Shown here: one piece after another, positions 28,595 to 57,361 of the stretch
How the letters are laid out: the number at the start of each line of letters is the position of its first letter
Numbering within the stretch: the stretch's first letter is position 1
Origin: a virus
Taxonomy: Duplodnaviria > Heunggongvirae > Uroviricota > Caudoviricetes
Virus record (IMG/VR): IMGVR_UViG_3300020577_006835
Location: 68,588 to 132,587 of that record
Direction: 5' to 3' (one strand)
DNA: 64,000 nt
Translations under genes and position numbers: made by a program
Notes under the pieces: model-generated
The model's database searches: none
What the model saw: the letters and a program-made list of their open reading frames with translations, nothing else
What the model was told of the DNA's origin: nothing

Positions 28595-29089
28595 ATGCTG
28601 GTGATCTCCGGTGGGCAGTCGGGTGCCGACATCGGCGGAGTGGTCGGAGCGTTCTCAGCCGGCCACTCCTGCCTCTTCATCGCTTTCCGCGGCTTCAAGC
28701 CGCAGGGCCGCGACTCCCTGCCGAGCGTGATCCCGTACAAGGACGCCGTCATGCCCGAGTGGGCAGTGTCCTACCCCCAGATGCTCTTGGCCCGTACGCA
28801 GCACAACGTCGAGCTGGCAGATGCGACCGTGGTCTTCATCAACACGATGCACCTGAAGGACTCGATCGGCTCGCGGCGTACCATGGAGTACGCGCAGAAG
28901 ATGCAGCGTCCTCGACTCCTGCTCACCCTGTTCGGGCAGTCTGATGTCGAGCCGACGGCGAGCGTGTTGTCCGAGTGGGTTCAACGTGTGAAGCCAGAAA
29001 TCCTGAACATTGCAGGAAGCAGAACTTGCGACGAGGACTTGGTGAGTCGCATAACCGAGAAAGGGTTGAAGCAATGCTTGACGGTGTGA
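28595..29089 (+). CDS. SLOG-superfamily Rossmann-like protein (MoCo-carrier/YpsA-like motif ISGGQSGADIGG)
   Basis: N-terminal LVISGGQSGADIGGVVGAFSAG glycine-rich nucleotide-binding-like motif. Confidence 0.35.
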   Translation: MLVISGGQSGADIGGVVGAFSAGHSCLFIAFRGFKPQGRDSLPSVIPYKDAVMPEWAVSYPQMLLARTQHNVELADATVVFINTMHLKDSIGSRRTMEYAQKMQRPRLLLTLFGQSDVEPTASVLSEWVQRVKPEILNIAGSRTCDEDLVSRITEKGLKQCLTV

Positions 29090-34182: not shown

Positions 34183-34410
34183 ATGGCAGACAACCCAAAC
34201 CAAGCACGAGGAGTCGTCAGAGTGTCGGCCCTCGTGCTTGGCCTACTCGCGATCGTCGCGATGTACCAAGGCCTGCACGCCTTCATGAGCGTGGACAACT
34301 ATGAGGGCGGCCGCTGGTACGCAGTCATGGCCCTCGGCTGGGCCATCTACCTGCTGGGCCTCCGAGCGCTGGCGACCGTGCTCGGCTTCATCATGTACGG
34401 GGAACGCTGA
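34183..34410 (+). CDS. small two-TM membrane protein
   Basis: ORF track; hydrophobic segments VSALVLGLLAIVAMY and YAVMALGWAIYLLGLRALATVLGFIMY. Confidence 0.45.
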   Translation: MADNPNQARGVVRVSALVLGLLAIVAMYQGLHAFMSVDNYEGGRWYAVMALGWAIYLLGLRALATVLGFIMYGER

Positions 34411-34411
34411 C

Positions 34412-35497
34412 TTGTACCTGCTGCTCTTGATGGTGGTGCCCCTGGTGGTGGGTGCTGTCGCGATGTTTACCTCGCGCGGCCGAGTCACCTGGAAAGAGTT
34501 CCTGGCCATGGAGGCGCTCTGCCTCTTCCTGCTCGGCGCTGGTGTTTTCATCGCCCGGTGGACGGCCACCTACGACGTCGAGGTCTGGAGCGGCCGCATC
34601 GTCAGCAAGAAGAAGGACTGGGTCTCCTGCGAACACAGCTACAGCTGCAACTGCAGGACAACCGGCAGCGGCAAGAAGAAGAGCACGACCTGCGACACCT
34701 GCTACGAGCACAGCAACGACTGGGACTGGTTGCTCTTCACCTCGAACGGTGAGCGGGTCGAGATCGAGCGCATCGACAGGCGCGGGTCTCAAACACCGCC
34801 GCGGTGGGAGGCTGCCAAGGTTGGCGACGCGACTGCGATCACGCACGCGTTCGACAACTACATCAAGGCCAACCCGGACTCCGTGCTCCGCTTGTCGGGC
34901 ACCATGGAGGCCTACTCTCTGCCCGAGTACCCGAACACGGTCTACGACTACTACTACGTGAACCGAGTGGTCGGTGACGCACCTGTACCCAACAGGCAGA
35001 TGTGGGAGTGGCAGGTCGCAGAGCTGAACGCAGACCTGGGCCGCGCCAAGCAGGTGAACGTGGTCTTCGTCTTCACCAAGCAGGACCCAGGCTTCACCGA
35101 GGCCCTGCGAGAGAAGTGGATCGGCGGCAAGAAGAACGACCTGATCATCATCTTCGGCACCAAGGACGGGACCTTCCTCGACTGGGTCAACATCATCTCC
35201 TGGACCGATTCGGAGATGCTCAAGGTGCAGCTGCGCGATGAGCTGTTGGCCATCAAGGACCTGGGCTACCGAGGCCCGATCCTCGACACCGTCAAGCGCA
35301 TGGTCAAGGAGCAGTTCGTCAGGAAGCCGATGGCCGACTTCAAGTACTTGATGGCCGGCCTGCAGCCTGGGCCAGGAGCGATCGGCGCGCTGTTCTTCCT
35401 GTCGATCGCACTCTCGTGTGGGCTCGTGTTCTGGTTCCACAAGGAAGACGTTTTCGGGGACGAGGATGTCCCTGCAGCATGGAGGAGGAGAGTATGA
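34412..35497 (+). CDS. membrane protein (N-terminal and C-terminal TM helices; Cys-rich segment CEHSYSCNCRTTGSGKKKSTTCDTCYEH)
   Basis: Part of ORF 34301..35497; start set at TTG 34412 just after the previous stop (an alternative ATG is at 34430). Confidence 0.5.
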   Translation: MYLLLLMVVPLVVGAVAMFTSRGRVTWKEFLAMEALCLFLLGAGVFIARWTATYDVEVWSGRIVSKKKDWVSCEHSYSCNCRTTGSGKKKSTTCDTCYEHSNDWDWLLFTSNGERVEIERIDRRGSQTPPRWEAAKVGDATAITHAFDNYIKANPDSVLRLSGTMEAYSLPEYPNTVYDYYYVNRVVGDAPVPNRQMWEWQVAELNADLGRAKQVNVVFVFTKQDPGFTEALREKWIGGKKNDLIIIFGTKDGTFLDWVNIISWTDSEMLKVQLRDELLAIKDLGYRGPILDTVKRMVKEQFVRKPMADFKYLMAGLQPGPGAIGALFFLSIALSCGLVFWFHKEDVFGDEDVPAAWRRRV

Positions 35498-36078
35498 AGG
35501 CAGTAGCAGCAGTCGCAGCGTTGTTCGGAGTGGTCATCGTCTTCGCCCTGGGTGTGGTGCTGGCAGGCGTCGGCTACCGCAACGGCGCCGTGCGCTTCGA
35601 GAACGCGATCGAAGCGTCGTACACCAACAACCAGAACGTGTACGACAACGGGTGGAAGGAAGTGAAGGAGAAGGCGCAGGTGCCGACTCTGGCCGAGAGC
35701 CAGCTGGAGAAGCTCTACAAGTCGGCCTTGCAGGGCCGCTACGGCGACAAGGGGTCGCAGGCCGTGGTCCAGTTCATCCAGGAGCAGAACCCGCATCTGG
35801 AGCCCGCCCTGTACGTGCAGATCCAGCAGTCGGTCGAAGCCTTCAGGCGCAGCTTCACGTCGCACCAGACGACGCTGATCTCGCAGAAGCAGGCCTACAA
35901 GAACTACCTCGACGCCTCGATCAGCGGCATCGTGTTCAACGGTTTCTTCGGCTTTCCGCACATCGACCTGACCAAGTTCGACATCATCACGTCCGACCAG
36001 ACGCAGCAGGACTTCGAGACCAAGAAGTCACAACCGATCGACCTGATCAGCGACAGGCCATTGCAACCGGAGAAGTAA
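35494..36078 (+). CDS. LemA-family membrane protein
   Basis: ORF 35416..36078, start moved to ATG 35494 with RBS; N-terminal TM, then NGAVRFENAIEASYTNNQNVYDNGWKEVKEKAQVPTLAESQLEKLYKSALQGRYG, which is LemA-like. Confidence 0.65.
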   Translation: MKAVAAVAALFGVVIVFALGVVLAGVGYRNGAVRFENAIEASYTNNQNVYDNGWKEVKEKAQVPTLAESQLEKLYKSALQGRYGDKGSQAVVQFIQEQNPHLEPALYVQIQQSVEAFRRSFTSHQTTLISQKQAYKNYLDASISGIVFNGFFGFPHIDLTKFDIITSDQTQQDFETKKSQPIDLISDRPLQPEK

Positions 36079-36386
36079 GCAGTGACGGCTGCTGCACGTG
36101 TAAGCTGACGTGCGACAGCATGGGTCGGTGCAGGAATCACGGCCACTGGTCGTCGGTGACGGCGACAGAAGCGAGTGGGTACGGAGGCGACAACGGCGCC
36201 AGAGTTCCGTCGAAAGGTTCCATGCCAGCCGGGGTGTCCGGGTTCGATCCCTGGGGATACCGCACCAAGTCGGAGGAAGAGCCGACCAGCCGTTCACGAC
36301 CGTGAAACCCATACCGGTTGACAAGAAACGCGGATCTGGGCATAGTCGGTGATCAACGCGAGAGTGGCGAAATTGGCAGCACGCGC

Positions 36387-36833
36387 ATGGGGATGAGCAA
36401 GGAACAAGCACGAGTCTACCACCGCTCCTACTACTACAAGCGGCGACAGAAGCTCTACGATTTCCTCGGTGGAAAGTGCGTGGTGTGCGGTGCAACAGAA
36501 GACCTTGAGTTTGATCACATTGACCCTGCACAGAAGTCGTTCGACATCAAGGATAACCTCACGCTCAGTGAGGCTGTGAAGCAAGAGTTGGAGAAGTGCC
36601 AGTTGTTGTGCCGCGCGCACCACACCGAGAAAACCATCCGGGCGCAGATCAAGGTCAGCTTCGAGCATGGCACGTCGTACGGGTGGCGCAGGGCGCGTTG
36701 TAGTTGTGTAGCGTGCTCGGAGGCCCGCTGGCACTACTACGACAGGCGCAACGCGGCTCGACGTCGCGTGAGAGACAAGCCAAACAAGACCAAGAGACAG
36801 GCTGGGGTGACGGGAACTGGCATACCTCACTGA
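36387..36833 (+). CDS. HNH endonuclease (same family as 24658..25107)
   Basis: ORF 36318..36833, start moved to ATG 36387; GGKCVVCGATEDLEFDHIDPAQK...KCQLLCRAHH; 3' end overlaps the tRNA-like element at 36801. Confidence 0.7.
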   Translation: MGMSKEQARVYHRSYYYKRRQKLYDFLGGKCVVCGATEDLEFDHIDPAQKSFDIKDNLTLSEAVKQELEKCQLLCRAHHTEKTIRAQIKVSFEHGTSYGWRRARCSCVACSEARWHYYDRRNAARRRVRDKPNKTKRQAGVTGTGIPH

Positions 36834-36876
36834 TTCAAAACCAGTGGCACTGTGGGTTCGAGTCCCACCCCCAGTA
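36801..36876 (+). tRNA. tRNA-like gene, anticodon CAA? (irregular D-arm; low confidence)
   Basis: 7-bp acceptor GCTGGGG/CCCCAGT and T-arm GTGGGTTCGAGTCCCAC are good; anticodon stem ACTGA/CCAGT with loop TTCAAAA; D-arm is poor. Confidence 0.35.
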
Positions 36877-36877
36877 T

Positions 36878-36949
36878 ACACCGATAGCTCAGATGGTAGA
36901 GCGCACGACTGATAATCGTGATACGGGAGTTCGATCCTCTCTCGGTGTA
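36878..36949 (+). tRNA. tRNA-Ile (anticodon GAT)
   Basis: 72 nt; ACACCGA TA GCTC AGATGGTA GAGC...CACGA CTGATAA TCGTG...GGGAGTTCGATCCTCTC. Confidence 0.85.
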
Positions 36950-36954
36950 CTCAG

Positions 36955-37028
36955 GCCCACGTAGCACAACTGGATAATGCACCGGACTACGAATCCGGTT
37001 ATTGGGGGTTCAAGTCCCTCCGTGGGTA
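36955..37028 (+). tRNA. tRNA-Arg (anticodon ACG)
   Basis: 74 nt; anticodon stem CCGGA/TCCGG, loop CTACGAA; T-arm GGGGGTTCAAGTCCCTC. Confidence 0.8.
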
Positions 37029-37036
37029 CTTCTCAG

Positions 37037-37110
37037 GGGTCGTTAGCTCAGTGGAGCAGAGCACCACGTTCCGAGCGTGGGGGTCGCAGGTTCGAGTCCT
37101 GCACGGCCTA
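37037..37110 (+). tRNA. tRNA-Arg (anticodon CCG)
   Basis: 74 nt; anticodon stem CCACG/CGTGG, loop TTCCGAG; acceptor has 2 G-U pairs. Confidence 0.7.
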
Positions 37111-37121
37111 CTGAAGCCTGT

Positions 37122-37196
37122 GCGCCAGTAGCTCAGCGGACTCAGAGCGGCGGTTTTCTACACCGAGGGTCGGGGGTTCGATTCCCTCCTGGCGTG
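37122..37196 (+). tRNA. tRNA-Arg (anticodon TCT)
   Basis: 75 nt; acceptor GCGCCAG/CTGGCGT; loop TTTCTAC; T-arm GGGGGTTCGATTCCCTC. Confidence 0.8.
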
Positions 37197-37229
37197 TTGA
37201 AGTAGCAGCAGAAGAAGGAAGGGGAATGC

Positions 37230-37655
37230 ATGAAGAGAAGGATGCGAAAGGCTCTCTTGACGAAGCTCGCCGACTTGTTGGACGACTTCTTCCACACCAT
37301 CAAGCACCTGATTGCCGTGCTGGAGCTGCAGGGTTGGTCGCTGGACAACCTGGCCTTCGGCATGGGCGGCGCGCTGCTGCAGCAGATCGACCGGGACACG
37401 TGTTCCTTCGCCATGAAGGGTTCCTGGGTTCGAGTCGACGGTGTGGAGCGCGAGATCTACAAACAGCCTGTGACCGATTCGAAGAAGAACTCGCTGCGCG
37501 GGCGGCTGGCTCTCATCAAGGATGTCAAAGGACTCTTGACAACAGTAGCTGGTCCGTGCGAAGACGACATCCTCGTCGACACGTATCTCAACGGCGAGGT
37601 GCTCCAGACCTGGGACTACGAACAGGTCAGGGAGCGAGTCCGAGCAGCGATCTGA
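37230..37655 (+). pseudogene. C-terminal fragment (about 140 aa) of a nicotinamide/nicotinate phosphoribosyltransferase (NAMPT-family) gene; the N-terminal catalytic two-thirds are absent from the locus
   Basis: NLAFGMGGALLQQIDRDTCSFAMKGSWVRVDGVEREIYKQPVTDSKKNSLRGRLAL aligns with the NAMPT C-terminus (NIAFGSGGGLLQK..RD..FA.K.SYV..NG.G..VFKDP..D..K.SKKGRLSL); strong RBS; flanked by tRNA and HNH genes. Confidence 0.6.
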
Positions 37656-37751
37656 CCATGAACGACTTCACACACCAGATGCCAAGCCCCGCCAAGGGTG
37701 CGGTTGCGCGACCACGACCGTGGCCGCGACCGTGCCCGTGTCGGTAAGCAT

Positions 37752-37823
37752 CTGGGTGTAAGTCAGTGGCAGACGGCGCCGTTCGGATCGGCGAGGCCGG
37801 GAGTTCGAGTCTCCCCACCCAGA
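37752..37823 (+). tRNA. tRNA-Pro (anticodon CGG)
   Basis: 72 nt; acceptor CTGGGTG/CACCCAG; anticodon stem CGCCG/CGGCG, loop TTCGGAT; T-arm GGGAGTTCGAGTCTCCC. Confidence 0.7.
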
Positions 37824-37825
37824 CT

Positions 37826-38191
37826 CAACCTCCACCCTCCGCTGAGCCTGAGACTGCTCTAGACCGCCGTCGAAGGCGGTGGCGCGAGTGGTACCACCGC
37901 AACAAGCACGATCAGTTCAAGAAGGAGTACTTCAGGAGGACGACGAGGAGAGCGAAAGCCAGGGCTTGGCTGGATAACTACAAGAGGGGGCTGTCTTGTG
38001 CTGAGTGCGGGTTTTCGAACCCAGTAGCACTGGACTTTCACCACACAGATCCGGCGGGCAAGGATTTCAGCTTGGCTGACGCTCTCAACGTCTCTCTTTC
38101 TATCAAGAGGCTGCAAAAGGAAATTCAGAAGTGCGTCGTCTTGTGTGCGAACTGTCACCGGATAGAGCATGCAAGACTGATCGGGATGTAG
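37826..38191 (+). CDS. HNH endonuclease (same family as 24658 and 36387); start codon unclear because the upstream in-frame region (ORF 37766..) runs through tRNA-Pro(CGG)
   Basis: RRRRWREWYHRNKHDQFKKEYF...CAECGFSNPVALDFHHTDPAGK...KCVVLCANCHRIEH; 3' end overlaps tRNA-Pro(TGG) by about 10 nt. Confidence 0.6.
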   Translation, partial: QPPPSAEPETALDRRRRRWREWYHRNKHDQFKKEYFRRTTRRAKARAWLDNYKRGLSCAECGFSNPVALDFHHTDPAGKDFSLADALNVSLSIKRLQKEIQKCVVLCANCHRIEHARLIGM

Positions 38192-38257
38192 CGTAGTCTG
38201 GCCAACGCGCCTGTTTTGGGAACAGGAGACTCGCAGGTTCGAATCCTGTCATCCCGA
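38182..38257 (+). tRNA. tRNA-Pro (anticodon TGG)
   Basis: 76 nt; CGGGATG TA GCGT...CCTGT TTTGGGA ACAGG...GCAGGTTCGAATCCTGT CATCCCG A. The N-terminus of ORF 38216.. is really this tRNA. Confidence 0.75.
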
Positions 38258-38287
38258 CTCTTTCTCATAGTGACCGCCAGGACAACA

Positions 38288-38818
38288 ATGACCCTTCACG
38301 AGCGCCTCGGACAGTTCGACCAGAAGCAGGTGGTGCGCTTCGAGTGCACCTTCGAGGTCTACGCTGTCTGCAACATGCTGACCAACACCATGCGGGTCAA
38401 CATGGCCATGGCGGCCGAGCTGGTGCCCGAGCTGACCCGCTTGCAGCAGTCAACGCAGACCTTGGCCAGCAGGTTTGCGATCCTGCCGGCCCACATCGAC
38501 AAGCTGAAGGACGGGGCCATCGTCGAGCTGAGCATCCGCGAGATCATGGCCATGCTGGAGATCGTGTACTTCTTCCGCACCAGGGGGTTCGGGGCGCTCG
38601 TCTCATCGTTCTACGACTTCGTCGACGCCGGCATTCTGCCTCGTGACGCAGAGCTGAACGTGCAACACTTGGAGCGCATGCTGCGCTCGACCGAGATGTC
38701 GATCAGCATGCTGGGCGAGGACGTCTACCGGTGCCTGTCGCAGTCGAAGGAGAAGCCGACGGTACCGATCGAGATGGCAGAGGGTTCTGCGTTGAAGCAG
38801 GGGGAGCTGGGTAATTGA
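38288..38818 (+). CDS. hypothetical protein
   Basis: ORF 38216..38818, start moved to ATG 38288 (MTLHERLGQF), downstream of tRNA-Pro. Confidence 0.5.
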   Translation: MTLHERLGQFDQKQVVRFECTFEVYAVCNMLTNTMRVNMAMAAELVPELTRLQQSTQTLASRFAILPAHIDKLKDGAIVELSIREIMAMLEIVYFFRTRGFGALVSSFYDFVDAGILPRDAELNVQHLERMLRSTEMSISMLGEDVYRCLSQSKEKPTVPIEMAEGSALKQGELGN

Positions 38819-38819
38819 C

Positions 38820-39023
38820 GTGGACGAAACCGAGTACCAAGGGCTCGTCGAGAAGTTCACAGAGCTGATTCACGGGTCCGAGGACGCCATGGGGGCCTTC
38901 GCGGCCCACCTGGCCCGGAACCAGCTCACCGCGGCCGCGCTGTACGCGCTGCTCTACAACCACGGCATCCGCTTCGACACCAACGCCATCAGCTCCTGGC
39001 GCAGGCAGAAGGTGAAGCGGTGA
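38820..39023 (+). CDS. small hypothetical protein
   Basis: ORF track (GTG start right after previous stop). Confidence 0.4.
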   Translation: MDETEYQGLVEKFTELIHGSEDAMGAFAAHLARNQLTAAALYALLYNHGIRFDTNAISSWRRQKVKR

Positions 39024-39475
39024 GAGAGGCCGTCGGAGACCTCTGGACGCACCCGGCTCGCATCAAGGTGGTGACGACCAACTGGACGCTCAAGAGCGAC
39101 GGCTCGCTCGTCATGGGTGCCGGCGTCGCCAAGCAGGCGGCAGAGCGTTACCCAGACCTGCCGTACGAGCTTGGTGAGTTCATCGCCGGCTGCATCAAGC
39201 ATGGTCGTGGGCCGTTGCCGGTCTTCGTCGCCCGCTACAACTTGATCTCTCTGCCGACCAAGGTCGACTGGCGGGCTCCGTCGGAGCTGGGCTTCGTCGA
39301 GGAGATGCTCGACAAGCTCGCCAACGATCTGTTCGGCACCTACCCGGTCAGCCAGGACGTGGTCATGCCGAGGCCAGGTTGCGGGCTCGGCGGGTTGCGC
39401 TGGGAGGACGTCAAGCCGATCTGCGAGAGGCACCTTGTGAGCGATCATTACATCGTGATCGACAAGGTGTGCTGA
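39020..39475 (+). CDS. macro-domain-like (ADP-ribose binding/processing) protein
   Basis: VVTTNWTLKSDGSLVMGAGVAKQAAERYP and PRPGCGLGGL resemble the macro-domain motifs NAAN...GGGVAGAI and G.G.YG. Confidence 0.45.
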   Translation: MREAVGDLWTHPARIKVVTTNWTLKSDGSLVMGAGVAKQAAERYPDLPYELGEFIAGCIKHGRGPLPVFVARYNLISLPTKVDWRAPSELGFVEEMLDKLANDLFGTYPVSQDVVMPRPGCGLGGLRWEDVKPICERHLVSDHYIVIDKVC

Positions 39476-39661
39476 CACGGGGGCTGGTGGTGGATCTGGG
39501 ACTGGTGTTGTTGGGTGGGTCGATCGCGCTGAACGCCTACCTCGTCATGAGGCTGCAGGTGGTCACCAAGGAACGGGACCTGCTTGAGATGGAGAAGCGT
39601 CACCGCCTCAAGGCGGCGAGTCACCTCAAGCTGGTGAGAGCAGGAAGGTTGGTACGAACTG

Positions 39662-40486
39662 ATGGACGAAACGCGGGTCCAAGATCTGCTTGACGAGGTC
39701 GAGCGCGAGCGCAACGTCAAGATACTGTTTGCCGTCGAGTCCGGTTCCAGGGCCTGGGGTCTCGACTCGCCTAAGAGCGACTGCGACGTGCGCTTCGTAT
39801 TCACCTACCCGCGCGACCGGTACCTGACGATCCAGCCGCCGAACGACGTCATCGTCCACAAGAACGGCGAGATCGAGCTGGACAGCTGGGAGCTGCGCAA
39901 GGCGCTCGGCCTGCTGACCAAGGGCAACCCGACCTGCATGGAGTGGGTCTTCGCGCAGGTGGTCTACCGCGAGCTGGACTGGTCGCACTGGCCTGGGCTC
40001 AAGGTGCTGCGCGACCTGGCGCACCACTACTTCAACCCGATCGCGACCTACTACCACTACCTGCACATCGCGTCCAACAACTACAAGGACTACATCCGAG
40101 GCCGGGGCGAAGTGCCGGTCAAGAAGCTGACGCACGTGTTCCGCGGGCTCTTCAGCGCGATCTGGGTGCTGCAGAACACGACTCTGCCGAAGGTCATGTA
40201 CACCGGCGAACTCACGGACCCGATGCCGGCGCACAACTTCAACACGCTGATGGTTGCCGCCCTGCCGCGCGTGCGCGAGTACCTCACGGAGCAGGAGTGC
40301 GACGAGCTGGTTCAGATCCCTGCCATGAAGAGGGAAGGTGTCGACACGATGCAGGAGCCGGCCTGGCTGGAGCCGTACCTGGACACCGAGCTGCGTGTGC
40401 TCAAGGATGCTGCCAGCTCGGTGCCCAAGCCGCTGCACCAGGACTTCAAGATGCTGGACGAGTTCTTCCGGGCTTCGCTACGCTGA
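39662..40486 (+). CDS. Pol-beta-superfamily nucleotidyltransferase (PF10127/RlaP-like)
   Basis: ILFAVESGSRAWGLDSPKSDCDVRFVF fits the GS..G...SD.D signature; about 270 aa with a helical C-terminal domain. Confidence 0.55.
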   Translation: MDETRVQDLLDEVERERNVKILFAVESGSRAWGLDSPKSDCDVRFVFTYPRDRYLTIQPPNDVIVHKNGEIELDSWELRKALGLLTKGNPTCMEWVFAQVVYRELDWSHWPGLKVLRDLAHHYFNPIATYYHYLHIASNNYKDYIRGRGEVPVKKLTHVFRGLFSAIWVLQNTTLPKVMYTGELTDPMPAHNFNTLMVAALPRVREYLTEQECDELVQIPAMKREGVDTMQEPAWLEPYLDTELRVLKDAASSVPKPLHQDFKMLDEFFRASLR

Positions 40487-40504
40487 AACACAAGGAGATG
40501 AACG

Positions 40505-41008
40505 ATGAACGAGGATGTGACGCTGAAGGAGCTGCGTGAGCAGCTGTCCGCCGACCTGAAGGCGGGCAAGATCGTAACCTGCGCCTGCTGCGAGCAGAAG
40601 TGCAAGGTGTACAAGCGTACCATCACGAGGACGATGGCGATCGCCCTCCTGCTCTTCACCAGGTACACGAGACCGGGCGAGCCGTTCCACCTGCCGACCC
40701 TTCTGTCTGACCCTCCGGGCGATCTGCCGGCCACGCTGCGCGCCGGCTTCCACGGCGGTGACCCGGTCAAGCTCAAGCACTGGGGCATGATCGAGTCCGC
40801 ATCCAAGGAGAAGAGGCCGGACGGCAGCAAGCGCAACGGCTGGTACGTCGTCACCCCGTTCGGGCGCAGCTTCGCCCGTGGCGAGGTTTTCGCCAAGAAG
40901 CACGTGCGCACCTACAACGAGCGCGTGCTGCGCATGGAGGAGCCGTTGATCAAGATCTCGACCGCTCTGGGCGAGGGGTTCGACTTCAACGAGCTGATGA
41001 GTGCGTGA
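40505..41008 (+). CDS. hypothetical protein
   Basis: ORF track; RBS AAGGAGATGAACG. Confidence 0.5.
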   Translation: MNEDVTLKELREQLSADLKAGKIVTCACCEQKCKVYKRTITRTMAIALLLFTRYTRPGEPFHLPTLLSDPPGDLPATLRAGFHGGDPVKLKHWGMIESASKEKRPDGSKRNGWYVVTPFGRSFARGEVFAKKHVRTYNERVLRMEEPLIKISTALGEGFDFNELMSA

Positions 41009-41634
41009 CCGGACGCATGTACCCGGCTGAGTTGCAGAGTCTGCATGATCGAGTCCTGCACGGGCTCGCGACCAAGTCGCTGAAGTACTCGAAGCAGGGG
41101 TTCACGTTGCGCAGCGGGAAGACGAGCCACGTGCTCATCGACGCCTCGCGCACGATCAAGTCAGGGGAGCACTTCGAGGACATCGGGTACCTTTGCGAGC
41201 GCTTCCTGCACTCGCTCACCGACCACTGGCCTGTGGCCGTCGGCGGGCCGGCAACGGGATGCGACCCGCTGTGTGCAGCTCTCTTGGCGACTACCAGCGT
41301 GCGCCTGGATTGGTTCTCGGTACGCAAGGAGCCCAAGAACCGTGGCCTCGACTACGGCTGCCTCAGCGGTGCCTACCCAACCAGTGGTGAGTCGGTTGTC
41401 CTGTTCGAGGACGTGCTGACCACCGGCGGCTCGCTGCTGCATGCGATCGAGCAGTGCCGGCCTAAGATGGACATCCTGGGCGTGTTCGTGCTCGTTGACC
41501 GGGAGGAGGGTGGCAGGGAGGCGATCCAGGCTGCGCTGCCGGACGCGCTGTTTCACGCCGAGTTCACTCTGGACGAGATCGAGGCCTACAAGCGCGCCCA
41601 GGCCGGCGGCCGGATGCCCTGGGACGATGAGTGA
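41005..41634 (+). CDS. type I phosphoribosyltransferase, orotate-PRTase (PyrE)-like
   Basis: PRPP-binding motif VVLFEDVLTTGGSLL; GFTLRSGKTSHVLIDAS resembles the OPRT N-terminal motif. Confidence 0.6.
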   Translation: MTGRMYPAELQSLHDRVLHGLATKSLKYSKQGFTLRSGKTSHVLIDASRTIKSGEHFEDIGYLCERFLHSLTDHWPVAVGGPATGCDPLCAALLATTSVRLDWFSVRKEPKNRGLDYGCLSGAYPTSGESVVLFEDVLTTGGSLLHAIEQCRPKMDILGVFVLVDREEGGREAIQAALPDALFHAEFTLDEIEAYKRAQAGGRMPWDDE

Positions 41635-41890: not shown

Positions 41891-42778
41891 ATGATGATGA
41901 ACGCACAGCGCAAGGCGAAGAGCAGCAGCAAGCGGAACGAGACGGTCGTCGATCTCCGTGAGTTCATCGCGGCCGGCATTCAGGGTGTGCTCCTGAGCCG
42001 CCGCTTCATCCCCGCCTCCGAGGCCCGCCAGACCGGCGACGAGTCGACGCTGGAGACCGCCCGCGGCCTCAGCACCCGCTTCCAGACCTCGATCACCGAC
42101 CGCGCCCGCGAGGGTGCCGACAAGGTCCTCGCCTTCATGGGCGAGCAGCAGTTCAAGATGGCGTCGGCGCGCAGCGAGTTCTCGCGCTCGCTGTCGGCCG
42201 AGTTCTCGAACGCGCGTCAGAACGGTGTGCGCGGCGACAAGGCCGGCATCGTCGTGTGGGCCATCAAGGTCTACATGGACGCCCAGAAGGCCGCCAAGGG
42301 GGCTCCTGCGGTCGAGAGCCGCAACGTGGTCTGCGAGGCGACCCGCATCGTCAACCTCTTCGCCAAGGCGACGGAGGCCGGCCTGCAGCACCCGAAGATC
42401 CGCCTTCAGGTCGAGAGCTTGGGCAAGGTGGTCTTCTCGCTCGCCGGCCCGCGCTCCAGCGCCCCGGGCTCGATCAACATCACCGACGGCCGCCCCTACG
42501 GCCAGAACACCTACTACGGCCGCATCACCAAGGACGGCCAGATGGTCCCCAGCAAGGCGTGCACGGACGAGGTCCGCGACCTGATCGTCTCGCTGGCCAC
42601 CGACCCTGCTGGTGTCGCCAAGGTGCACGGGCACCGGACCGGGTATTGCTGCTTCTGCGGCAGACTGTTAACGGACGACAGAAACGGGTTCTCGGTCGAT
42701 ATGGGTTACGGTCCGATTTGTAGTGAGAAGTGGGGGCTGCCGTGGGGTGTCAGCGTGTCGGAGGAGGCAAGTGCGTAG
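41891..42778 (+). CDS. hypothetical protein with C-terminal Cys-rich motif (GYCCFCGRLL...GYGPICSEKWG)
   Basis: ORF track. Confidence 0.55.
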   Translation: MMMNAQRKAKSSSKRNETVVDLREFIAAGIQGVLLSRRFIPASEARQTGDESTLETARGLSTRFQTSITDRAREGADKVLAFMGEQQFKMASARSEFSRSLSAEFSNARQNGVRGDKAGIVVWAIKVYMDAQKAAKGAPAVESRNVVCEATRIVNLFAKATEAGLQHPKIRLQVESLGKVVFSLAGPRSSAPGSINITDGRPYGQNTYYGRITKDGQMVPSKACTDEVRDLIVSLATDPAGVAKVHGHRTGYCCFCGRLLTDDRNGFSVDMGYGPICSEKWGLPWGVSVSEEASA

Positions 42779-43569
42779 TCGCAGGGTGCGGGGAGCCCAC
42801 CCGTAGTCGTGGGCTGTGCCAGCTGCACTACAACCGCTGGATCAAGTACGGCAAGACTGGGGTCGGGCCAAGCACTAGGTTACACCAGCGCGCCCGCGGC
42901 AGGGTGTGCTCTGTACCGCAGTGCGACCGCCCGGTGAGGTGCAAAGGGCTCTGCAGCGTCCACTACGGCCACGGGATTCGGAGTAGCACCTGTGCACGCT
43001 GCGGTGGCAGGAAGACCGCAGCTGCTGCCCTCTGCGCGGGTTGCTTCGAGAAGACCTTCGAGCCGCCTGCCGCTGAGAAGCGGTGCACAGGGTGTAATGC
43101 AGTGCAGCCTGTCGAGGCGTTCGGCTGGCGCAGTGATGGTTCCGGCAGGTCCAAGCTGAGATCCAAGTGCCGCACCTGTGAGCGAGCCCGCGCGCGTACC
43201 TACATGGCTGCTCTGCGGCTCGACCCAGACAGGTGGCGCAGGGTGAAGGCGCGAGAGAAAGCTGCCAGGGACCTAGTGGCTCAACGAGACCCCGAGCGGT
43301 GGCTTTTCCGCTCGTTACGGGTCTCAGCTAAAGCACTCGGCATTGACCCTGAGCTGGTGTTTGAGCGTTTGCAACGCACAGGTCACCGGTGTGAGGTTTG
43401 CGGGTTGCAGGGTGCCCCATCACCAGGTCGTCGCCTCCACATCGACCACTGTCATACGACAGGTAGGTTTCGCGGACTGCTGTGCTCCCCGTGTAACCGG
43501 GCGCTGGGTCTAGTCGAAGACGACACAGACCGAGTCTTGAAGCTTGCCAAATATCTCAAGGGTGCTTGA
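42730..43569 (+). CDS. recombination endonuclease VII-family (HNH-like) protein with N-terminal CxxC zinc-ribbon repeats
   Basis: C-terminal RLHIDHCHTTGRFRGLLCSPCNRALG matches the Endo VII motif; N-terminal repeated C..GC...R..GLC..HY units. Confidence 0.6.
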   Translation: MGAAVGCQRVGGGKCVVAGCGEPTRSRGLCQLHYNRWIKYGKTGVGPSTRLHQRARGRVCSVPQCDRPVRCKGLCSVHYGHGIRSSTCARCGGRKTAAAALCAGCFEKTFEPPAAEKRCTGCNAVQPVEAFGWRSDGSGRSKLRSKCRTCERARARTYMAALRLDPDRWRRVKAREKAARDLVAQRDPERWLFRSLRVSAKALGIDPELVFERLQRTGHRCEVCGLQGAPSPGRRLHIDHCHTTGRFRGLLCSPCNRALGLVEDDTDRVLKLAKYLKGA

Positions 43570-52550: not shown

Positions 52551-52601
52551 ACCAACAATCAACTTGGAGGCGTCACCACGTTGCGCTACTACGTGGGCAC
52601 G

Positions 52602-53672
52602 ATGCAGAAACCTGAATACCTGATCATCGGATCAGGGCTCACAGGTGCGACGATCGCCCGCTTGCTGCATGACGCCGGCAAGCGGGTTCTCGTGCTTGAG
52701 AGCCGAAGCCACCCGGGCGGCAACGTCTGGGACGACATCTACGAGGACACCGGGATCTGGTACCACCTGTACGGGCCTCACTACTTCCGCACCGACTCGG
52801 AGCGCGTGTGGGCCTTCGTCAACCGCTTCTGCAACTGGCGACCATGGGCGGCACGCGTCTCGATCGAGCACAAGGACAAGCTCCGGCCCTGGCCGCTGAC
52901 GCCTGAGGAGCTGGCCGAGTTCGGCAAGATCGAGCCTCCGGAGCGCGTCGAGAACTTCCGCGACGCCTGCCTGACGAAGATGCCGCGGGCTGCGTACGAG
53001 GCCTTCGTCGAGCCCTACAACCTGAAGCAGTGGGGTGTGTCGCCGCTGCAGCTGAAGCCCACGCTGGCCGGCCGGATCGACACCGCGGGGGACGATCCTT
53101 TGCGCCGCCTCAAGCCACAGAGGTACCAGGCGCAGCCGATGGGCGGCTACCAAGCCCTGATCAAGAACATGCTGCGCGACATCCCGGTCGAGGTGGGTCA
53201 CCACTTCGAGCTGGACGAGTGGAGCGGTGATGGCCACCTGGTCTTCACCGGCTCGAGCGACGAGCTGTTCGACAAGCGCTTCGGGCCGCTGCCGTACCGG
53301 TCTCAGGAGAGGGCAGTCGTCTACTACCCGTTCCAGAGTCAGCGCGAGTGGCCGACACCGCAGGTCAACTTCCCTTCTCTGCTCGACATCCCGATCCGCG
53401 GCATCGAGTGGAGGCATCTCGGCCCGCCGACCACCAAGTGGGGCGCGCTGATCACCTGGGAGATGCCGAGAGCTGGTGGCCTGGAGTATCCTATCCCGAC
53501 GTTCGAGGCCGAGGCCCTGTACGAGCGGTACAGGGCGCTGCTGCCTGAGCTGGAGCGGGTCACGGTCGCTGGCAGACTAGGGCGGTTTCAGTACCTCGAC
53601 ATGGATCAAGCGATTGGCGCCGCTATGGTGTTGGCTGGGAGGCTGCTGAAAGGTGAAAAAGATCCAGCTTGA
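52602..53672 (+). CDS. glf: UDP-galactopyranose mutase
   Basis: YLIIGSGLTGATIA...GKRVLVLESRSHPGGN...YGPHYFRT...GGYQALIKNML...VAGRLGRFQYLDMDQAI aligns along the whole length with bacterial Glf. ORF track start is TTG 52581; ATG 52602 is preferred. Confidence 0.8.
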   Translation: MQKPEYLIIGSGLTGATIARLLHDAGKRVLVLESRSHPGGNVWDDIYEDTGIWYHLYGPHYFRTDSERVWAFVNRFCNWRPWAARVSIEHKDKLRPWPLTPEELAEFGKIEPPERVENFRDACLTKMPRAAYEAFVEPYNLKQWGVSPLQLKPTLAGRIDTAGDDPLRRLKPQRYQAQPMGGYQALIKNMLRDIPVEVGHHFELDEWSGDGHLVFTGSSDELFDKRFGPLPYRSQERAVVYYPFQSQREWPTPQVNFPSLLDIPIRGIEWRHLGPPTTKWGALITWEMPRAGGLEYPIPTFEAEALYERYRALLPELERVTVAGRLGRFQYLDMDQAIGAAMVLAGRLLKGEKDPA

Positions 53673-54396
53673 TGAGGTGAGAGTGGTCGAGTTGTACCGG
53701 CAAGGGAGAAGCCTACCGCAAGTGGCGGTGGAGATGCACTGCTCTCCGGGTACAGTGAAGAAGTGTTTGACCGGTCTCGGTGTCAAGATCCGCAGAGCCA
53801 GGCCTCTCAGTGAGCAGATCGAGATCGGTAGGCGGTTCGGCAGGCTGACCGTGACCGACTTGATGATGACGGCACGCAGAGATGGGCCAGGGCTCACACT
53901 GACAGCTCTCTGCAGCTGTCAGTGCGGTCGCAGCGGTCTTGAGAAAAGAGCTAGCAACCTGTTGAGCGGCACGACTACATCCTGCGGGTGTAGGCCAAGA
54001 ATCGGCGCTGACGGTCCGCGATGGAAAGGTTGTGGCCAGCTGAGCGGGTACGCCTGGGCTCAGATCACAGCATCTGCCAGAAGCCGTGCTGATAGGCAAA
54101 AGGCTCACTTCGAAGTTACTATCGAGGAGGCGTGGCAGTTGTTTGAAGCCCAAGGTGGTCGGTGTGCTCTGAGCGGGCTGCCGATCTGCTTTGCCGAGAC
54201 AGCTGAGAAGAAGAGGCAAGGGCAGCAGACAGCCTCTCTAGACAGGATTGATTCCAGAGCGGGTTACACAGTCGGTAATCTGCAGTGGGTTCACAAGGAC
54301 ATCAACAAGCTCAAGAGTGACTTCCAAGAGGGGAGATTCGTTGAGCTGTGCAAGCTCGTGGCCGATTACCAAGCAGAGAGGCTGTTGCATGGGTGA
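53653..54396 (+). CDS. HNH homing-endonuclease-like protein with N-terminal HTH
   Basis: GTG start; C-terminal GGRCALSGLPI...ASLDRIDSRAGYTVGNLQWVHKDINKLK; inserted between glf and the GT2 gene. Confidence 0.6.
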   Translation: MKKIQLDEVRVVELYRQGRSLPQVAVEMHCSPGTVKKCLTGLGVKIRRARPLSEQIEIGRRFGRLTVTDLMMTARRDGPGLTLTALCSCQCGRSGLEKRASNLLSGTTTSCGCRPRIGADGPRWKGCGQLSGYAWAQITASARSRADRQKAHFEVTIEEAWQLFEAQGGRCALSGLPICFAETAEKKRQGQQTASLDRIDSRAGYTVGNLQWVHKDINKLKSDFQEGRFVELCKLVADYQAERLLHG

Positions 54397-55231
54397 GAAG
54401 ATCTCGGTGATGGTGCCCTACTACAAGGAAGACGGGGCGCAGGTACGAACGCTGTTGCAGTCGCTGCCGATGAACATGCTGCACGAGGTGGCTGTGGTCG
54501 ATGACGGCGGCAACGGTTCGATCAAGGACTTCCTGCCGCCAGGGGTCAAGTACTACAGGCATGACGAGAACGTCGGACCCACCGGCAACTACAACAGGTG
54601 TATCGAGCATGCGACCGGTGACCTGGTGCACATCATGCACGCCGACGACGTCGTGCAGGTGGCTTTCTACATCGGGATCACCGGCCTGGCGCAAAAGTGG
54701 CCCGACTGCGCCTTCTACGGCACGCAGCACTTCCACATGCAGGAGGGCAACAACCAGGTCTTCGTACCGGCGTACCAGTTCTTCCTGTTCACGCCGACCG
54801 ACGATCCGACCACCCTGTACTACGGCAACGCGTTCGCAGCCTCGGCCTGTGTGATCCGGCGCTCCTTCTTCGCGAAGCACGGTTACTACAACGAGAAGCT
54901 GGTCCATGTGGCAGACTGGGAGATGTGGGTACGAGCGATCAGGTTTGGCGGCGGGGTCTACCTGCCGGCGCCACTGGTCACGTACTTGACGTCCAGCAGG
55001 AATCACACGACACACCTCGCGATGACCGGCGACAACTTCCGCGACACGCTGCAGCTGGCACCGATCTTCGAGGAGTACGGCGGAGACAAGTTCGACAAGA
55101 GGAAGTTCTACGAGACGGTGCTCGCATCGACCGAGGCTCAGGCCAAGGGTCTGGAGGCCGCCGGGTTGAAGGATGCCGCCAAGCACAACCGTAAGCTGGC
55201 GCACGAGATCAAGGGGAGACTCAATGGGTAA
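54389..55231 (+). CDS. family-2 glycosyltransferase (GT-A fold)
   Basis: ORF 54248..55231, start moved to ATG 54389 (ATGGGTGA overlap); ISVMVPYYKEDGAQVRTLLQSL...HEVAVVDDGGNGS. Confidence 0.6.
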   Translation: MGEKISVMVPYYKEDGAQVRTLLQSLPMNMLHEVAVVDDGGNGSIKDFLPPGVKYYRHDENVGPTGNYNRCIEHATGDLVHIMHADDVVQVAFYIGITGLAQKWPDCAFYGTQHFHMQEGNNQVFVPAYQFFLFTPTDDPTTLYYGNAFAASACVIRRSFFAKHGYYNEKLVHVADWEMWVRAIRFGGGVYLPAPLVTYLTSSRNHTTHLAMTGDNFRDTLQLAPIFEEYGGDKFDKRKFYETVLASTEAQAKGLEAAGLKDAAKHNRKLAHEIKGRLNG

Positions 55232-55778
55232 GGTTGAAGCGCTCAGCAAGGCGTCCCAGGTCGCCGGATTCATGTACGAGCATGAGCTGGAGTGGCTCTA
55301 CGACCAGGCCTGTGACCGCGACATCATCATCGAGATTGGTGTCTGGAAAGGGCTCAGCACGACCGTGCTCTGTGAGGCTTGTCCGGGCGTCGTGATCGCT
55401 GTCGACCACTTTTCCGGTGGCTCGGACGAGGGGGATGCGAGCCCGGCCGCGGCCAAGAACCAGAATGTCAGGGCGGTCGCCATCGAGAACCTCAAGCCAT
55501 ACCTGGATTCAGGCAAGCTGATCCTGGTGCAGACCCCGTCCGACAAGGCGTTTGAGACCCTGCGCAAGCTGTTCCCCGGTCGCTTCGCCGACATGGTCTA
55601 CATCGACGGAGACCACCGGACCGAGGCCGTGAAGCTGGACTTGAGGTACAAGGACCTGATCAAGGACGGCGGACTACTCTCAGGGCACGACTGGGATTGG
55701 AGCAGTGTGCGCGAAGCAGTGGCGCCGCTGAAGCCTGTGACCCTGGGTCGCATGTGGTGGACGCTGATCGGCGGTTGA
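55227..55778 (+). CDS. TylF/MycF-like class I SAM-dependent (sugar) O-methyltransferase
   Basis: ORF 55173..55778, start moved to ATG 55227; IIEIGVWKGLST, VDHFSGG, VYIDGDH, LSGHDWDW. Confidence 0.55.
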   Translation, partial: GKVEALSKASQVAGFMYEHELEWLYDQACDRDIIIEIGVWKGLSTTVLCEACPGVVIAVDHFSGGSDEGDASPAAAKNQNVRAVAIENLKPYLDSGKLILVQTPSDKAFETLRKLFPGRFADMVYIDGDHRTEAVKLDLRYKDLIKDGGLLSGHDWDWSSVREAVAPLKPVTLGRMWWTLIGG

Positions 55779-55810: not shown

Positions 55811-57361
55811 ATGTCGTACCTCGGCTACAAGCTGCACCCTGAGAGCAGGGACAGACTGCTGCACCGCTTCCCCGCGGTGCACCCGGAGGTGGTCGCACAC
55901 CACGTGACGACCGACCTGCTGGGGAAGCGGTACACGGCCTTCAGGCCCGAGGATGCGCACGTCGAGGTCATCGGCCACGCAGCCAACAGCCTGGTCCAGG
56001 CTGCCGTGCTGCGCGTCAACGGCAAGACGCACCGTGACGACGGGGAGCCGTTTCATGTCACACTGTCCGTGAACAGGAAGCTCGGAGGGTCGCCCAAGGA
56101 CTCGAAGGAGCTGATCCGCCAGGGTTACGAGAAGGTGGACCCGTTCACGATCCAGGCCGAGCCCGAGTATTTCCAGGAGGAAGTCACGCCAGTTTTGTCC
56201 AAATACGATCACGTCATCCGTGCGGTGCAGGACTTCACAGGGTTGAAGCCGTACCTCGTCGGCGGAGCTGTGCGTGACGCGATGCTGGGCAAGCCGTCCA
56301 AGGACACGGACCTGGTGGTCGTGGGCGGCCACGACAAGCTGCACAAGCTCGGCTTCAAGCCGATCAAGAAGGACTTCCCGGTCTTCACGCACCCGAAGTT
56401 CCCCGGCGTCGAGGTTGCTCTGGCCCGCGGCGAGAAGAAGACCGGCACCGGCCACAGCGGCTTCGACTGGCACGAGGCGGCCGACCTGACCACGGACTTG
56501 AATCGCAGGGATTTCACGGTCAACGCGATGGCCTATCACCCGGACGACGGCGTGATCGACCACCACGGCGGCATGAGCGACCTGCAGAACAAGAAGCTGC
56601 GCCACGTGTCGGATGCCTTCTCTGAGGACCCGCTGCGCACGTTCAGGGCGGCCCGCTTCGCGGCCAAGCTGGGCTTCGATGTCCACCCGGACACGATCCC
56701 AGTGCTGCGAGCGACCAATCCGGAGCTGCCGGCGCTGTCCAAGGAGCGCGTGCGCGACGAGTTCAGCCGGGCCATGATGACCAAGAACCCGAGCCGGTTC
56801 TTCAAGACGCTCAAGCTGTCCGGCTCGCACGAGCACTGGTTCCCGGAGGCTGCGCACCTGAAGGACTCGACGATGCGGGCGCTCGACTCGGCTGCGGCCG
56901 GCGGGGCGTCCGAGGAGGCCAGGCACCTGGTCCTGACCCACGCCATGTCACCGGAGACGATCAAGGCCTTCGACGCACGGCTGGGTGTGGGAGCGGCCGA
57001 CACGGCACGCAAGCTGACGCACGCCAAGTACTCGCCCATGGGCACGGCCAGGCACCAGAGCCCGGACGCGGCCGCGGAGCACTGGAGGGCGGTCCGCTCG
57101 ACGCTCATGGGGCCTCATCTGCAGGCGCTGGCCCACCAGGGCGGCAACCAGGTGGAGCACCTGAAGGGGCTCTTCAAGAGGCTGGGAGAGGTCAGGATCG
57201 AGCCCCAGAAGGGCAAGAGGGCCGACGTGGCGGCCATTCGCAGCACGTACGCAGCTGCGGCCGCGCAGTACCTCAAGGAGAGCGTGAACAAGGTCGACGA
57301 GCTGATCGCAGAGGCATTGAAAGGAATGAATGGGTATGGGGATCGGACCGAGCTGGGGTAG
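55811..57361 (+). CDS. fusion of N-terminal 2H-phosphoesterase-like domain (two HxT motifs) and class II tRNA nucleotidyltransferase (CCA-adding enzyme / PcnB family)
   Basis: N-terminal HHVTTD and FHVTLS; then LVGGAVRDAMLGKPSKDTDLVVVG (GGxVRD...DxD head motif), RRDFTVNAMAY, DPLRTFRAARFAAKLGF. Confidence 0.7.
   Translation: MSYLGYKLHPESRDRLLHRFPAVHPEVVAHHVTTDLLGKRYTAFRPEDAHVEVIGHAANSLVQAAVLRVNGKTHRDDGEPFHVTLSVNRKLGGSPKDSKELIRQGYEKVDPFTIQAEPEYFQEEVTPVLSKYDHVIRAVQDFTGLKPYLVGGAVRDAMLGKPSKDTDLVVVGGHDKLHKLGFKPIKKDFPVFTHPKFPGVEVALARGEKKTGTGHSGFDWHEAADLTTDLNRRDFTVNAMAYHPDDGVIDHHGGMSDLQNKKLRHVSDAFSEDPLRTFRAARFAAKLGFDVHPDTIPVLRATNPELPALSKERVRDEFSRAMMTKNPSRFFKTLKLSGSHEHWFPEAAHLKDSTMRALDSAAAGGASEEARHLVLTHAMSPETIKAFDARLGVGAADTARKLTHAKYSPMGTARHQSPDAAAEHWRAVRSTLMGPHLQALAHQGGNQVEHLKGLFKRLGEVRIEPQKGKRADVAAIRSTYAAAAAQYLKESVNKVDELIAEALKGMNGYGDRTELG

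Follow-up and report, generated by a model that had tools for sequence, protein, structure and literature searches.

A truncated nadV gene in an uncultivated jumbo phage as the probable trace of a deleted NAD+-salvage operon

Results

We analyzed a 64,000-nucleotide stretch of DNA from an uncultivated tailed virus (positions 68,588 to 132,587 of IMG/VR record IMGVR_UViG_3300020577_006835), here called the window, in which an open reading frame (ORF) at 37230..37655 encodes only the end of NadV, the nicotinamide phosphoribosyltransferase of the NAMPT family. We conclude, with a probability of roughly 0.8, that this ORF is the trace of a deleted nadM-nadV operon that a sister phage has kept intact at the same spot. 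In the history that we propose, an ancestral operon of the NARP2 type (NAD+ reconstitution pathway 2), consisting of a leader, nadM and nadV, would have lain between two tRNA clusters. A deletion of ~2.0 kb in the window lineage would then have removed nadM together with nadV codons 1 to ~342, leaving behind in one frame the Shine-Dalgarno sequence with the leader ATG, ~58 nt of filler, and the last ~120 nadV codons. The features on which this rests are as follows (window coordinates, strand, description).

37198..37232, plus strand: 5' end of the former operon, with a purine-rich Shine-Dalgarno sequence AAGGAAGGGG and the leader ATG, now the start codon of the remnant
37230..37655, plus strand: remnant ORF, 141 amino acids (aa), residues 22-141 corresponding to NadV residues ~343-463
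37233..37288, plus strand: filler of ~56-58 nt at the deletion junction, remnant codons 2-21

The ORF at 37230..37655 retains only the C terminus of NadV

An initial annotation made from the sequence alone had described the ORF as a NAMPT-family C terminus whose N-terminal part is missing, and family searches agree. The product matches Pfam PF04095 (E = 1.3e-12) through residues 23-110, at profile positions 155-222 of 239, with no match to PF18127; phrog_448 (3.5e-28) at profile positions 367-495 of 500; and NCBIfam NF006629 at positions 343-463 of 465 only, with 110.6 bits where an equivalog needs 405. It lacks NAMPT_N and roughly two thirds of the catalytic domain. What is left shares 84% identity with the C terminus of the intact NadV of the sister species described below and 42-46% with the NAMPTs encoded by phages RsoM2USA and ACP17.

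Is the rest of the gene encoded nearby? When the full-length NAMPTs of ACP17 and RsoM2USA were compared with the 64-kb window by tblastn, the only match was at 37293-37652. Near-identical contigs allowed us to recover 9 kb upstream and 3.6 kb downstream of the window, and neither the window nor these flanks contained a NAMPT N-terminal piece (tblastn). A NadM query likewise found no NadM-like sequence in the window or the 12.6 kb of flanks, and there was no CTP_transf_like or NUDIX Pfam match among the window ORFs scanned. NARP2 requires Nampt and Nmnat genes together, and the window and recovered flanks hold no such pair. Because NAMPT_N and most of the catalytic domain are missing, the 141-aa product is presumably unable to make nicotinamide mononucleotide, and we infer that it is a recent pseudogene remnant.

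A sister species carries the intact nadM-nadV operon at the same position

Metagenome contigs were probed with an alignment of three remnant sequences, which returned the contig L024 (WBZL01019709.1). Overlaps between L024 and L023 (99.3% identical) and between L023 and L017 (98.3%) join these contigs into one continuous locus of a sister species, with 57-86% identity between its proteins and their counterparts in the window. On L024, the tRNAs Leu(caa), Ile(gat), Arg(acg) and Arg(tct) lie at 1358-1683, after an 81-aa ORF. A Shine-Dalgarno sequence and a 16-codon leader separate tRNA-Arg(tct) from nadM (1760-2686), which encodes a 308-aa protein with CTP_transf_like and NUDIX domains (NMN adenylyltransferase-Nudix). 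The nadV gene follows at 2683-4074; its 463-aa product contains NAMPT_N and NAPRTase domains and matches NF006629 end to end with 457 bits (cut-off 405). Located 3' of nadV in the sister species are tRNA-Pro(cgg), tRNA-Pro(tgg), a 125-aa gene and a gene of the 176-aa type discussed below, and then a 67-aa gene, a macrodomain gene, an RlaP gene, a 170-aa gene, a transferase gene and DUF6011.

Alignment of the two loci resolved the breakpoints to within a few bases. Window positions 37121-37232 align with L024 1607-1715, covering tRNA-Arg(tct), the Shine-Dalgarno sequence and the leader ATG, and window positions 37289-37823 align with L024 3708-4244. Missing from the window is L024 1716-3707, ~2.0 kb that comprise the entire nadM gene and nadV codons 1 to ~342. 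The lesion is thus a deletion of ~2.0 kb that also took nadM, and not an insertional disruption. The remnant owes its good ribosome-binding site and ATG to the ancestral operon, whose 5' end was kept. As a source for the filler between the two aligned segments, no significant match was found in L024 1684-3760, in the window or in the other loci; its 'LLDDFF' segment resembles the sequence for NadV residues 27-32 at 13 of 14 nt, which is not significant (E = 0.15).

This comparison shows that the ancestor carried a NARP2-type operon (leader, nadM, nadV) between two tRNA clusters. NARP2, a pairing of Nampt with Nmnat, counters Thoeris, DSR, SIR2-HerA and similar defenses (Osterman et al., bioRxiv 10.1101/2024.02.11.579819). 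In L024, genes for a NadM-type adenylyltransferase-Nudix protein and a full-length NadV stand next to each other in the canonical arrangement described for jumbo phages (Iyer et al. 2022, PMC9503650), whereas the window lacks nadM and retains only NadV residues ~343-463, which makes it a remnant of this system and not a member. The suggestion in the initial annotation that an NAD+-salvage counter-defense function had been lost here is borne out by the intact nadM-nadV pair at exactly this place in the sister species.

The flanking tRNAs are ancestral and the HNH genes are later insertions

The remnant is surrounded by tRNA and HNH endonuclease genes.

36318..36833, plus strand: free-standing HNH endonuclease (phrog_4234, 3e-32)
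36801..37197, plus strand: tRNA cluster Leu(caa), Ile(gat), Arg(acg), Arg(ccg), Arg(tct) (ARAGORN)
37752..37824, plus strand: tRNA-Pro(cgg), ancestral, directly 3' of nadV in the sister species (ARAGORN on the window, L023 and L024)
37766..38191, plus strand: second HNH endonuclease ORF (phrog_3106, 1.3e-28), between the two tRNA-Pro genes
38182..38258, plus strand: tRNA-Pro(tgg), ancestral

Both HNH genes and the downstream tRNA-Pro pair had been recognized in the initial annotation, but the upstream tRNAs number five by ARAGORN and not four. Rfam supports four of these five (Ile(gat), Arg(acg), Arg(ccg) and Arg(tct)) and not Leu(caa). These tRNAs, like the tRNA-Pro pair, also border the intact operon in L024 and are therefore ancestral, save for the upstream tRNA-Arg(ccg), which is absent from the sister species. 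Directly upstream of tRNA-Leu, ~450 bp (36351-36801) have been inserted, with 451 nt in the window versus 9 nt in L024; similarly, the spacer between the tRNA-Pro genes measures 357 nt in the window versus 14 nt in the sister species (L024 and L023). The only in-frame start of the second HNH ORF lies inside tRNA-Pro(cgg) and its stop inside tRNA-Pro(tgg), and the insertion fills the former spacer exactly. Both HNH genes are therefore later insertions outside the operon. The proposal that insertion of a mobile element had destroyed the gene is not supported, with the tRNAs ancestral, the HNH genes outside the operon, and ~2.0 kb absent rather than displaced.

The HNH genes, tRNA-Arg(ccg) and a two-gene cassette, all inserted nearby, show the locus to be a plasticity zone. 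The cassette, at window 34301-36078, encodes proteins of 398 aa (phrog_2087) and 220 aa (phrog_1383, 'virion structural protein') and is absent from both L024 and the contig L003 described next. Farther downstream, a 279-aa Endonuclease VII/HNH gene at window 42730-43569 is absent from L017, where position 42747 joins 43564 directly; it is another free-standing endonuclease insertion.

A second deletion allele and the age of the lesion

The exact 141-aa protein is encoded on 19 contigs that we read, from at least 11 JGI/SRA samples, and the ORF was nucleotide identical on 11 of the 11 contigs compared. This identity indicates a young clonal allele, without post-deletion polymorphism on which selection could be tested. 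One further contig, L003, has flanks 98.8-100% identical to the window (blastn) and carries a different allele, in which the deletion is larger.

34300..37341, plus strand: segment of 3,043 bp absent from L003 (blastn of L003 versus the window), containing the 398-aa gene, the 220-aa gene, the HNH gene, five tRNAs and the 5' 112 nt of the remnant ORF

Both ends of this segment have in common the 8 bases TGGACAAC found at the L003 junction. Through the deletion, a 75-aa membrane ORF continues in frame, after its first ~24 codons, into the NadV sequence from residue ~358, and the L003 remnant is therefore 15 NadV codons shorter than that of the window. The cassette after the remnant also differs, consisting in L003 of tRNA-Pro(tgg), an HNH_3 gene, a 125-aa gene and a 106-aa gene. 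The 125-aa gene (L003 6555-6941) is 87-90% identical in nucleotides to the sister species (L017, L023), compared with ~73% for the surrounding conserved block, which indicates that this segment was recently exchanged between the two species.

Comparison of the window and L003 remnants revealed nine coding differences, six synonymous and three nonsynonymous (dN/dS of 0.16, binomial P = 0.009 versus neutrality), a pattern that, with so few sites, a third-position transition bias could mimic. Neither the adjoining 1.1 kb on the upstream side nor the 8.5 kb downstream contained any difference. When polarized by L024, four synonymous changes and E117D fell to the window lineage, and M45T (GMGG to GTGG) and L120R fell to the L003 lineage; two further synonymous sites were unpolarized. 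Between the window remnant and L024 nadV, over 120 codons, dN/dS was 0.149 at a dS of 0.69, and neighboring genes gave 0.17-0.53. This low ratio implies that purifying selection acted on nadV during almost the whole period since the two species diverged, and that the deletion is recent. In the simplest reading, which the differences between the window and L003 no more than suggest, the two remnants derive from nadV alleles that had diverged while still intact, by independent deletions or by recombination.

Protein searches with the remnant returned 29 matches, all short. The same search also missed the full-length NadV of L024 (84% identical), and its lack of full-length matches therefore carries no weight. 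A conserved family of stand-alone NAMPT C termini was considered and rejected: the short homologues begin at differing alignment columns, most of them with a residue other than Met on contigs of 1-2 kb, where they are probably cut by contig ends; one member (L008) is a frameshifted full-length gene, and the rest are unrelated remnants. Stand-alone C-terminal pieces of 134-142 aa also occur in unrelated bacterial contigs (P0015 from GCA_041445565.1, P0023/L004 at 10001-10405, and L009 at 1045-1455), one of them directly following a CTP_transf_like (NMNAT-type) gene and one beside an extracellular contractile injection system (eCIS) cluster. These bacterial pieces may be pseudogene remnants.

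Alternative readings of the remnant

Could the 141-aa fragment be a functional small protein under selection, such as a regulator, a decoy, or a dominant-negative partner of host NAD-salvage enzymes? The points that weigh against its being only a trace are most easily read this way: its frame is still open behind an ATG with a strong Shine-Dalgarno sequence, neither deletion allele interrupts that frame, the L003 fusion preserves it, and the synonymous bias between those alleles could mean constraint on the fragment itself. The allele is also widespread, and stand-alone C-terminal pieces exist in unrelated genomes. A second NadV or NadM in the remaining ~130 kb of the genome, which is possible, would likewise weigh against loss of the function. 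Each observation has another side. The ribosome-binding site and ATG were inherited from the ancestral leader and did not newly evolve; the chance of two in-frame junctions is ~1 in 9; and the copies of the window allele, all nucleotide identical, carry no variation in which selection since the deletion could show. The L003 fragment is 15 residues shorter and mutated in the conserved GMGG motif, and the other short pieces begin elsewhere, most cut by contig ends and L008 by a frameshift. We also take the retained segment not to be a separate domain in NAMPT structures. A functional fragment is on balance quite improbable, and we favor reading the bias between the window and L003 as divergence accumulated while the gene was intact. 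A related view, that NARP2 was lost twice by independent deletions, implying active selection against it, with in-frame C-terminal pieces perhaps keeping a residual role, appears unlikely to us. Two independent losses in phages otherwise 98.8-100% identical would point to selection against NARP2 in this population, for its cost in phosphoribosyl pyrophosphate (PRPP), for toxicity, or through sensing by a host system.

Two other readings start from the endonuclease genes. Homing endonucleases are known to split phage genes, and with ~77 kb examined of a genome of at least 208 kb, the N-terminal ~340 residues might be encoded elsewhere and assemble with the fragment, as the initial annotation had allowed. 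The junction has instead the form of a simple deletion scar, in which the remnant starts at the old leader ATG and passes through unrelated filler to nadV codon ~343. In addition, the event took nadM as well, the fragment lacks the conserved QGDG strand that directly precedes the breakpoint, and the L003 variant shortens the fragment further. We regard a split NAMPT as very unlikely, to the point of being hardly credible. Destruction of the gene by insertion of a mobile tRNA/HNH island would account for the HNH genes on either side of the remnant, 400 bp before it and 110 bp after it, both of them true insertions relative to the sister species, and a homing endonuclease could have begun the deletion by making a double-strand break. 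However, the tRNAs shared with the intact L024 operon leave no inserted island, neither HNH insertion falls inside the operon, and ~2 kb are missing rather than interrupted, which makes island insertion highly improbable. The deletion of an ancestral nadM-nadV operon remains the reading that we adopt below.

An orphan DarG-type macrodomain lies downstream of the remnant

A block of genes follows the second tRNA-Pro gene.

38288..38818, plus strand: protein of unknown function, 176 aa (gene calls on identical contigs), first gene of a block syntenic in both species
39020..39475, plus strand: orphan DarG-type macrodomain, 151 aa
39662..40486, plus strand: RlaP-family Pol-beta nucleotidyltransferase, 274 aa (PF10127, phrog_14344)
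40505..41008, plus strand: protein of unknown function, 167 aa (phrog_2693), with homologues only in actinobacteriophages
41005..41634, plus strand: type I phosphoribosyltransferase resembling orotate phosphoribosyltransferase (OPRT) (phrog_32468), with a probable start at ATG 41017 giving 205 aa

Profile searches agree with the families to which the macrodomain, nucleotidyltransferase and OPRT-like genes had been assigned at the outset. A single-sequence Pfam search with the macrodomain gave no match, and phmmer against PDB recovered the DarG macrodomains of Mycobacterium tuberculosis and Thermus aquaticus (3e-8 and 6e-8). A profile built from 39 sequences matched DarG chains in PDB at 3.6e-24 (M. 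tuberculosis), 1.6e-22 and 2.7e-18, with TARG1 next at 1e-13. The NCBIfam antitoxin_DarG (1.5e-15) and PADLOC DarG (1.6e-15) models were matched in their macrodomain half only, in NCBIfam at positions 5-136 of 338. With the DarT-binding half lacking, these domain-level matches stay below the 250 bits set for full-length DarG. BLASTP against PhiKZ gp104 (AdfM) gave 8e-15 at 28% identity, and N21 of the window protein aligns with AdfM N23, the Asn mutated in the AdfM study. N21, K81 and G120-C121-G122-x-G124 are invariant among the 39 homologues, and we take the Lys of the PTK motif to be the catalytic residue (K80 in DarG, K84 in TARG1).

The genes on either side of the macrodomain encode 67 and 74 aa, and DarT family members are longer than this. 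Neither the 176-aa protein nor RlaP matched a PADLOC model, and the 67-aa ORF drew no match from Pfam or PHROGs. Judged from its sequence and neighbors, the macrodomain is an orphan that lacks the C-terminal DarT-binding domain and is not accompanied by a DarT toxin gene. AdfM is a chimallivirus orphan DarG2-like macrodomain with anti-DarT2 activity, and orphan DarG-like antitoxins in phages have already been published (Morgan et al. 2026, PMC13309987). The window protein resembles AdfM in being a single macrodomain of ~150 aa with no adjoining DarT toxin, and it has in common with AdfM and DarG (PDB 5M3I, 5M31) the catalytic Asn, the PTKxxWRxPS lysine motif and the GCGLGGL loop. By analogy with AdfM, it most likely removes the ADP-ribose that DarT2-type toxins install on phage DNA. 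It differs in its source: AdfM comes from a chimallivirus, whereas the window phage is not recognizable as one. We considered chimallivirus identity, which would tie the macrodomain to AdfM biology, and rejected it; the TubZ/PhuZ-like tubulin of the phage (window 10746-11918) has as its sole phage match that of Bacillus phage G, at 24% identity, and the portal and replication genes resemble those of T4.

One potential alternative is that the macrodomain, instead of acting on DNA, is a Poa1p/Adpp-type ADP-ribose-1''-phosphate phosphatase, or acts on soluble ADP-ribose derivatives produced by NAD+-depleting defenses or in tRNA repair, with a functional link to RlaP or the lost NAD pathway. In its favor, PHROG 335 carries the annotation 'phosphatase', 15% of NARP1 operons are accompanied by macrodomain phosphatases (bioRxiv 10.64898/2026.01.28.702374), and the gene lies beside RlaP in a setting where a survey of jumbo phages ties Macro domains to RNA repair (PMC7824862). 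We consider this doubtful, with DarG macrodomains by far the best matches, TARG1 after them, and both the NCBIfam and PADLOC DarG models matching. The PTK-motif Lys and the Asn mutated in AdfM are both conserved, no KptA/Tpt1 or RNA ligase was found in the window, and an ADP-ribose-1''-phosphate phosphatase feeds NARP1, not NARP2 (bioRxiv 10.64898/2026.01.28.702374).

RlaP, an OPRT-like transferase and the rest of the downstream block

The RlaP protein matches PF10127 with 181.5 bits (cut-off 23; E = 3e-53) over profile positions 3-248 of 249, and its translation contains the Pol-beta GS/DxD active-site motif ESGSRAWG...DCDVRF. Proteins of this family add one or two nucleoside monophosphates (NMPs) to damaged RNA 3' ends, making the repaired tRNA chargeable again (Carruthers et al. 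2025, PMC12776372), and in jumbo phages the distribution of RlaP usually mirrors that of RNA ligases (PMC7824862). As in other jumbo phages, RlaP is accompanied in the window by many tRNAs and a CCA-adding enzyme; unlike the usual pairing, no RNA ligase gene was detected in the window. We predict from its sequence that RlaP adds NMPs to RNA 3' ends for tRNA repair, and it would restore trimmed tRNA 3' ends alongside the 20 tRNAs and the CCA-adding enzyme.

For the transferase, the 205-aa start at ATG 41017 is also the choice of the gene callers on identical contigs. The protein matches M. tuberculosis OPRT in PDB at 2e-13. Compared with OPRTs (PyrE; the actinobacterial short form PDB 5HKF and the pyrE-like protein of cyanophage P-SSM2), it has the type I phosphoribosyltransferase signature VVLFEDVLTTGGS and the flexible-loop R-K-x-x-K motif, with 30-32% identity over ~170 residues; the PRPP motif and the RKxxK loop align with those of M. 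tuberculosis OPRT. It differs in that the DYYVD segment of M. tuberculosis OPRT is SHVLID in the window protein. Going by E. coli and Salmonella OPRT, we assume that the DYYVD segment contacts orotate. The enzyme would make a nucleotide from PRPP, and its base specificity is uncertain because of this change and because its scores lie below the cut-offs of TIGR00336 and of Pfam PF00156 (24.1 bits, cut-off 26.3).

Two results tell against these assignments. No RNA-ligase, RtcB or PNK Pfam match was found among the 87 window ORFs scanned, and the transferase, despite an E value of 6e-19 against the TIGR00336 pyrE model, reaches only 68.4 bits, under the cut-off of 106.8.

The order of the block (176-aa, 67-aa, macrodomain, RlaP, 167-aa and transferase genes) is conserved in both species, with or without NARP2. 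Its synteny in the sister species, which bears NARP2, means that the block is no replacement for the lost operon. A macrodomain-RlaP-transferase module was also considered and rejected: homologues of the three genes are found in different phages, or far apart in one (Pseudomonas phage D6). The genes had been grouped at first as an NAD/ADP-ribose-related set, a grouping we abandon for DarG/AdfM-type, RNA-repair and PyrE-like genes that form no recurring module in phages. These three genes belong to separate, known phage functions and the locus is ordinary in this respect; they probably act independently, in no shared pathway. The 176-aa protein is 86% identical to its L017 homologue, with no match in the family databases searched. 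Two contigs otherwise identical to the window, L012 (1-230) and L015 (1-598), diverge completely upstream of window 38569 and 38702, and the region of the 176-aa gene is therefore also polymorphic in the population.

Genomic context of the phage

The window has a G+C content of 62.7%, with a strong bias at third codon positions (GC3) in coding sequence, and contains 20 tRNA genes (ARAGORN) and genes for a T4-type portal, a TubZ-like tubulin and a CCA-adding enzyme. The recovered upstream flank encodes gp32, UvsX-like and gp46/47-like proteins. A 208-kb JGI contig encodes a protein 99% identical to the window macrodomain, from which it follows that the source is a jumbo phage of at least 208 kb; of this we examined ~77 kb, the 64-kb window and 12.6 kb of flanks. 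It is an uncultivated jumbo phage with T4-like replication and portal genes. The host is probably an actinobacterium, since homologues of several neighboring genes (phrog_2693, DUF6011, L5 gp82-like) are found only in actinobacteriophages. When a phage nucleotide database was searched, only tRNA-Pro matched, in Streptomyces phages. IMG/VR gave only an unrelated phage of 40% GC when probed with the Band_7 protein, and no match when probed with the NAMPT remnant.

Selfish elements heavily colonize this genome. The T4-type portal gene (window 5288-9286) carries two inteins, one with Hint_2 and one with Intein_splicing and an HNH_3 domain, and the 1127-aa gene upstream of it (window 1604-4987) carries a LAGLIDADG intein. 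The CCA-adding tRNA nucleotidyltransferase gene adjoins a histidine-phosphatase (His_Phos_1) gene (window 55811-57361 and 57672-58292), and the 20 tRNAs, this enzyme and RlaP together point to heavy investment in tRNA maintenance. A cpYpsA SLOG-domain protein, of a family linked to NAD/ADP-ribose, is encoded at approximately 28595-29089, ~8 kb upstream of the remnant. RNA ligase, KptA, Nudix and SIR2 searches gave no match anywhere in the window. UDP-galactopyranose mutase, family-2 glycosyltransferase and methyltransferase genes cluster at window 52581-55778, possibly for cell-envelope or DNA modification.

Discussion

What the window contributes is a natural loss of NARP2 seen at high resolution, along with additional members of known families, rather than a new kind of system or principle. 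NadV is found in about one third of jumbo phages. The window and L024 form a natural before-and-after pair, two closely related environmental jumbo phages in which the NARP2 operon is present in one and lost in the other. The authors who described NARP2 suggested that it may carry a higher metabolic cost, since PRPP is consumed (bioRxiv 10.1101/2024.02.11.579819), and this pair fits their suggestion. With the orphan macrodomain, the known range of AdfM-like DarG macrodomains extends to a jumbo phage outside the chimalliviruses, whose host is probably an actinobacterium. The locus as a whole shows how fast counter-defense genes turn over in tRNA/HNH plasticity zones.

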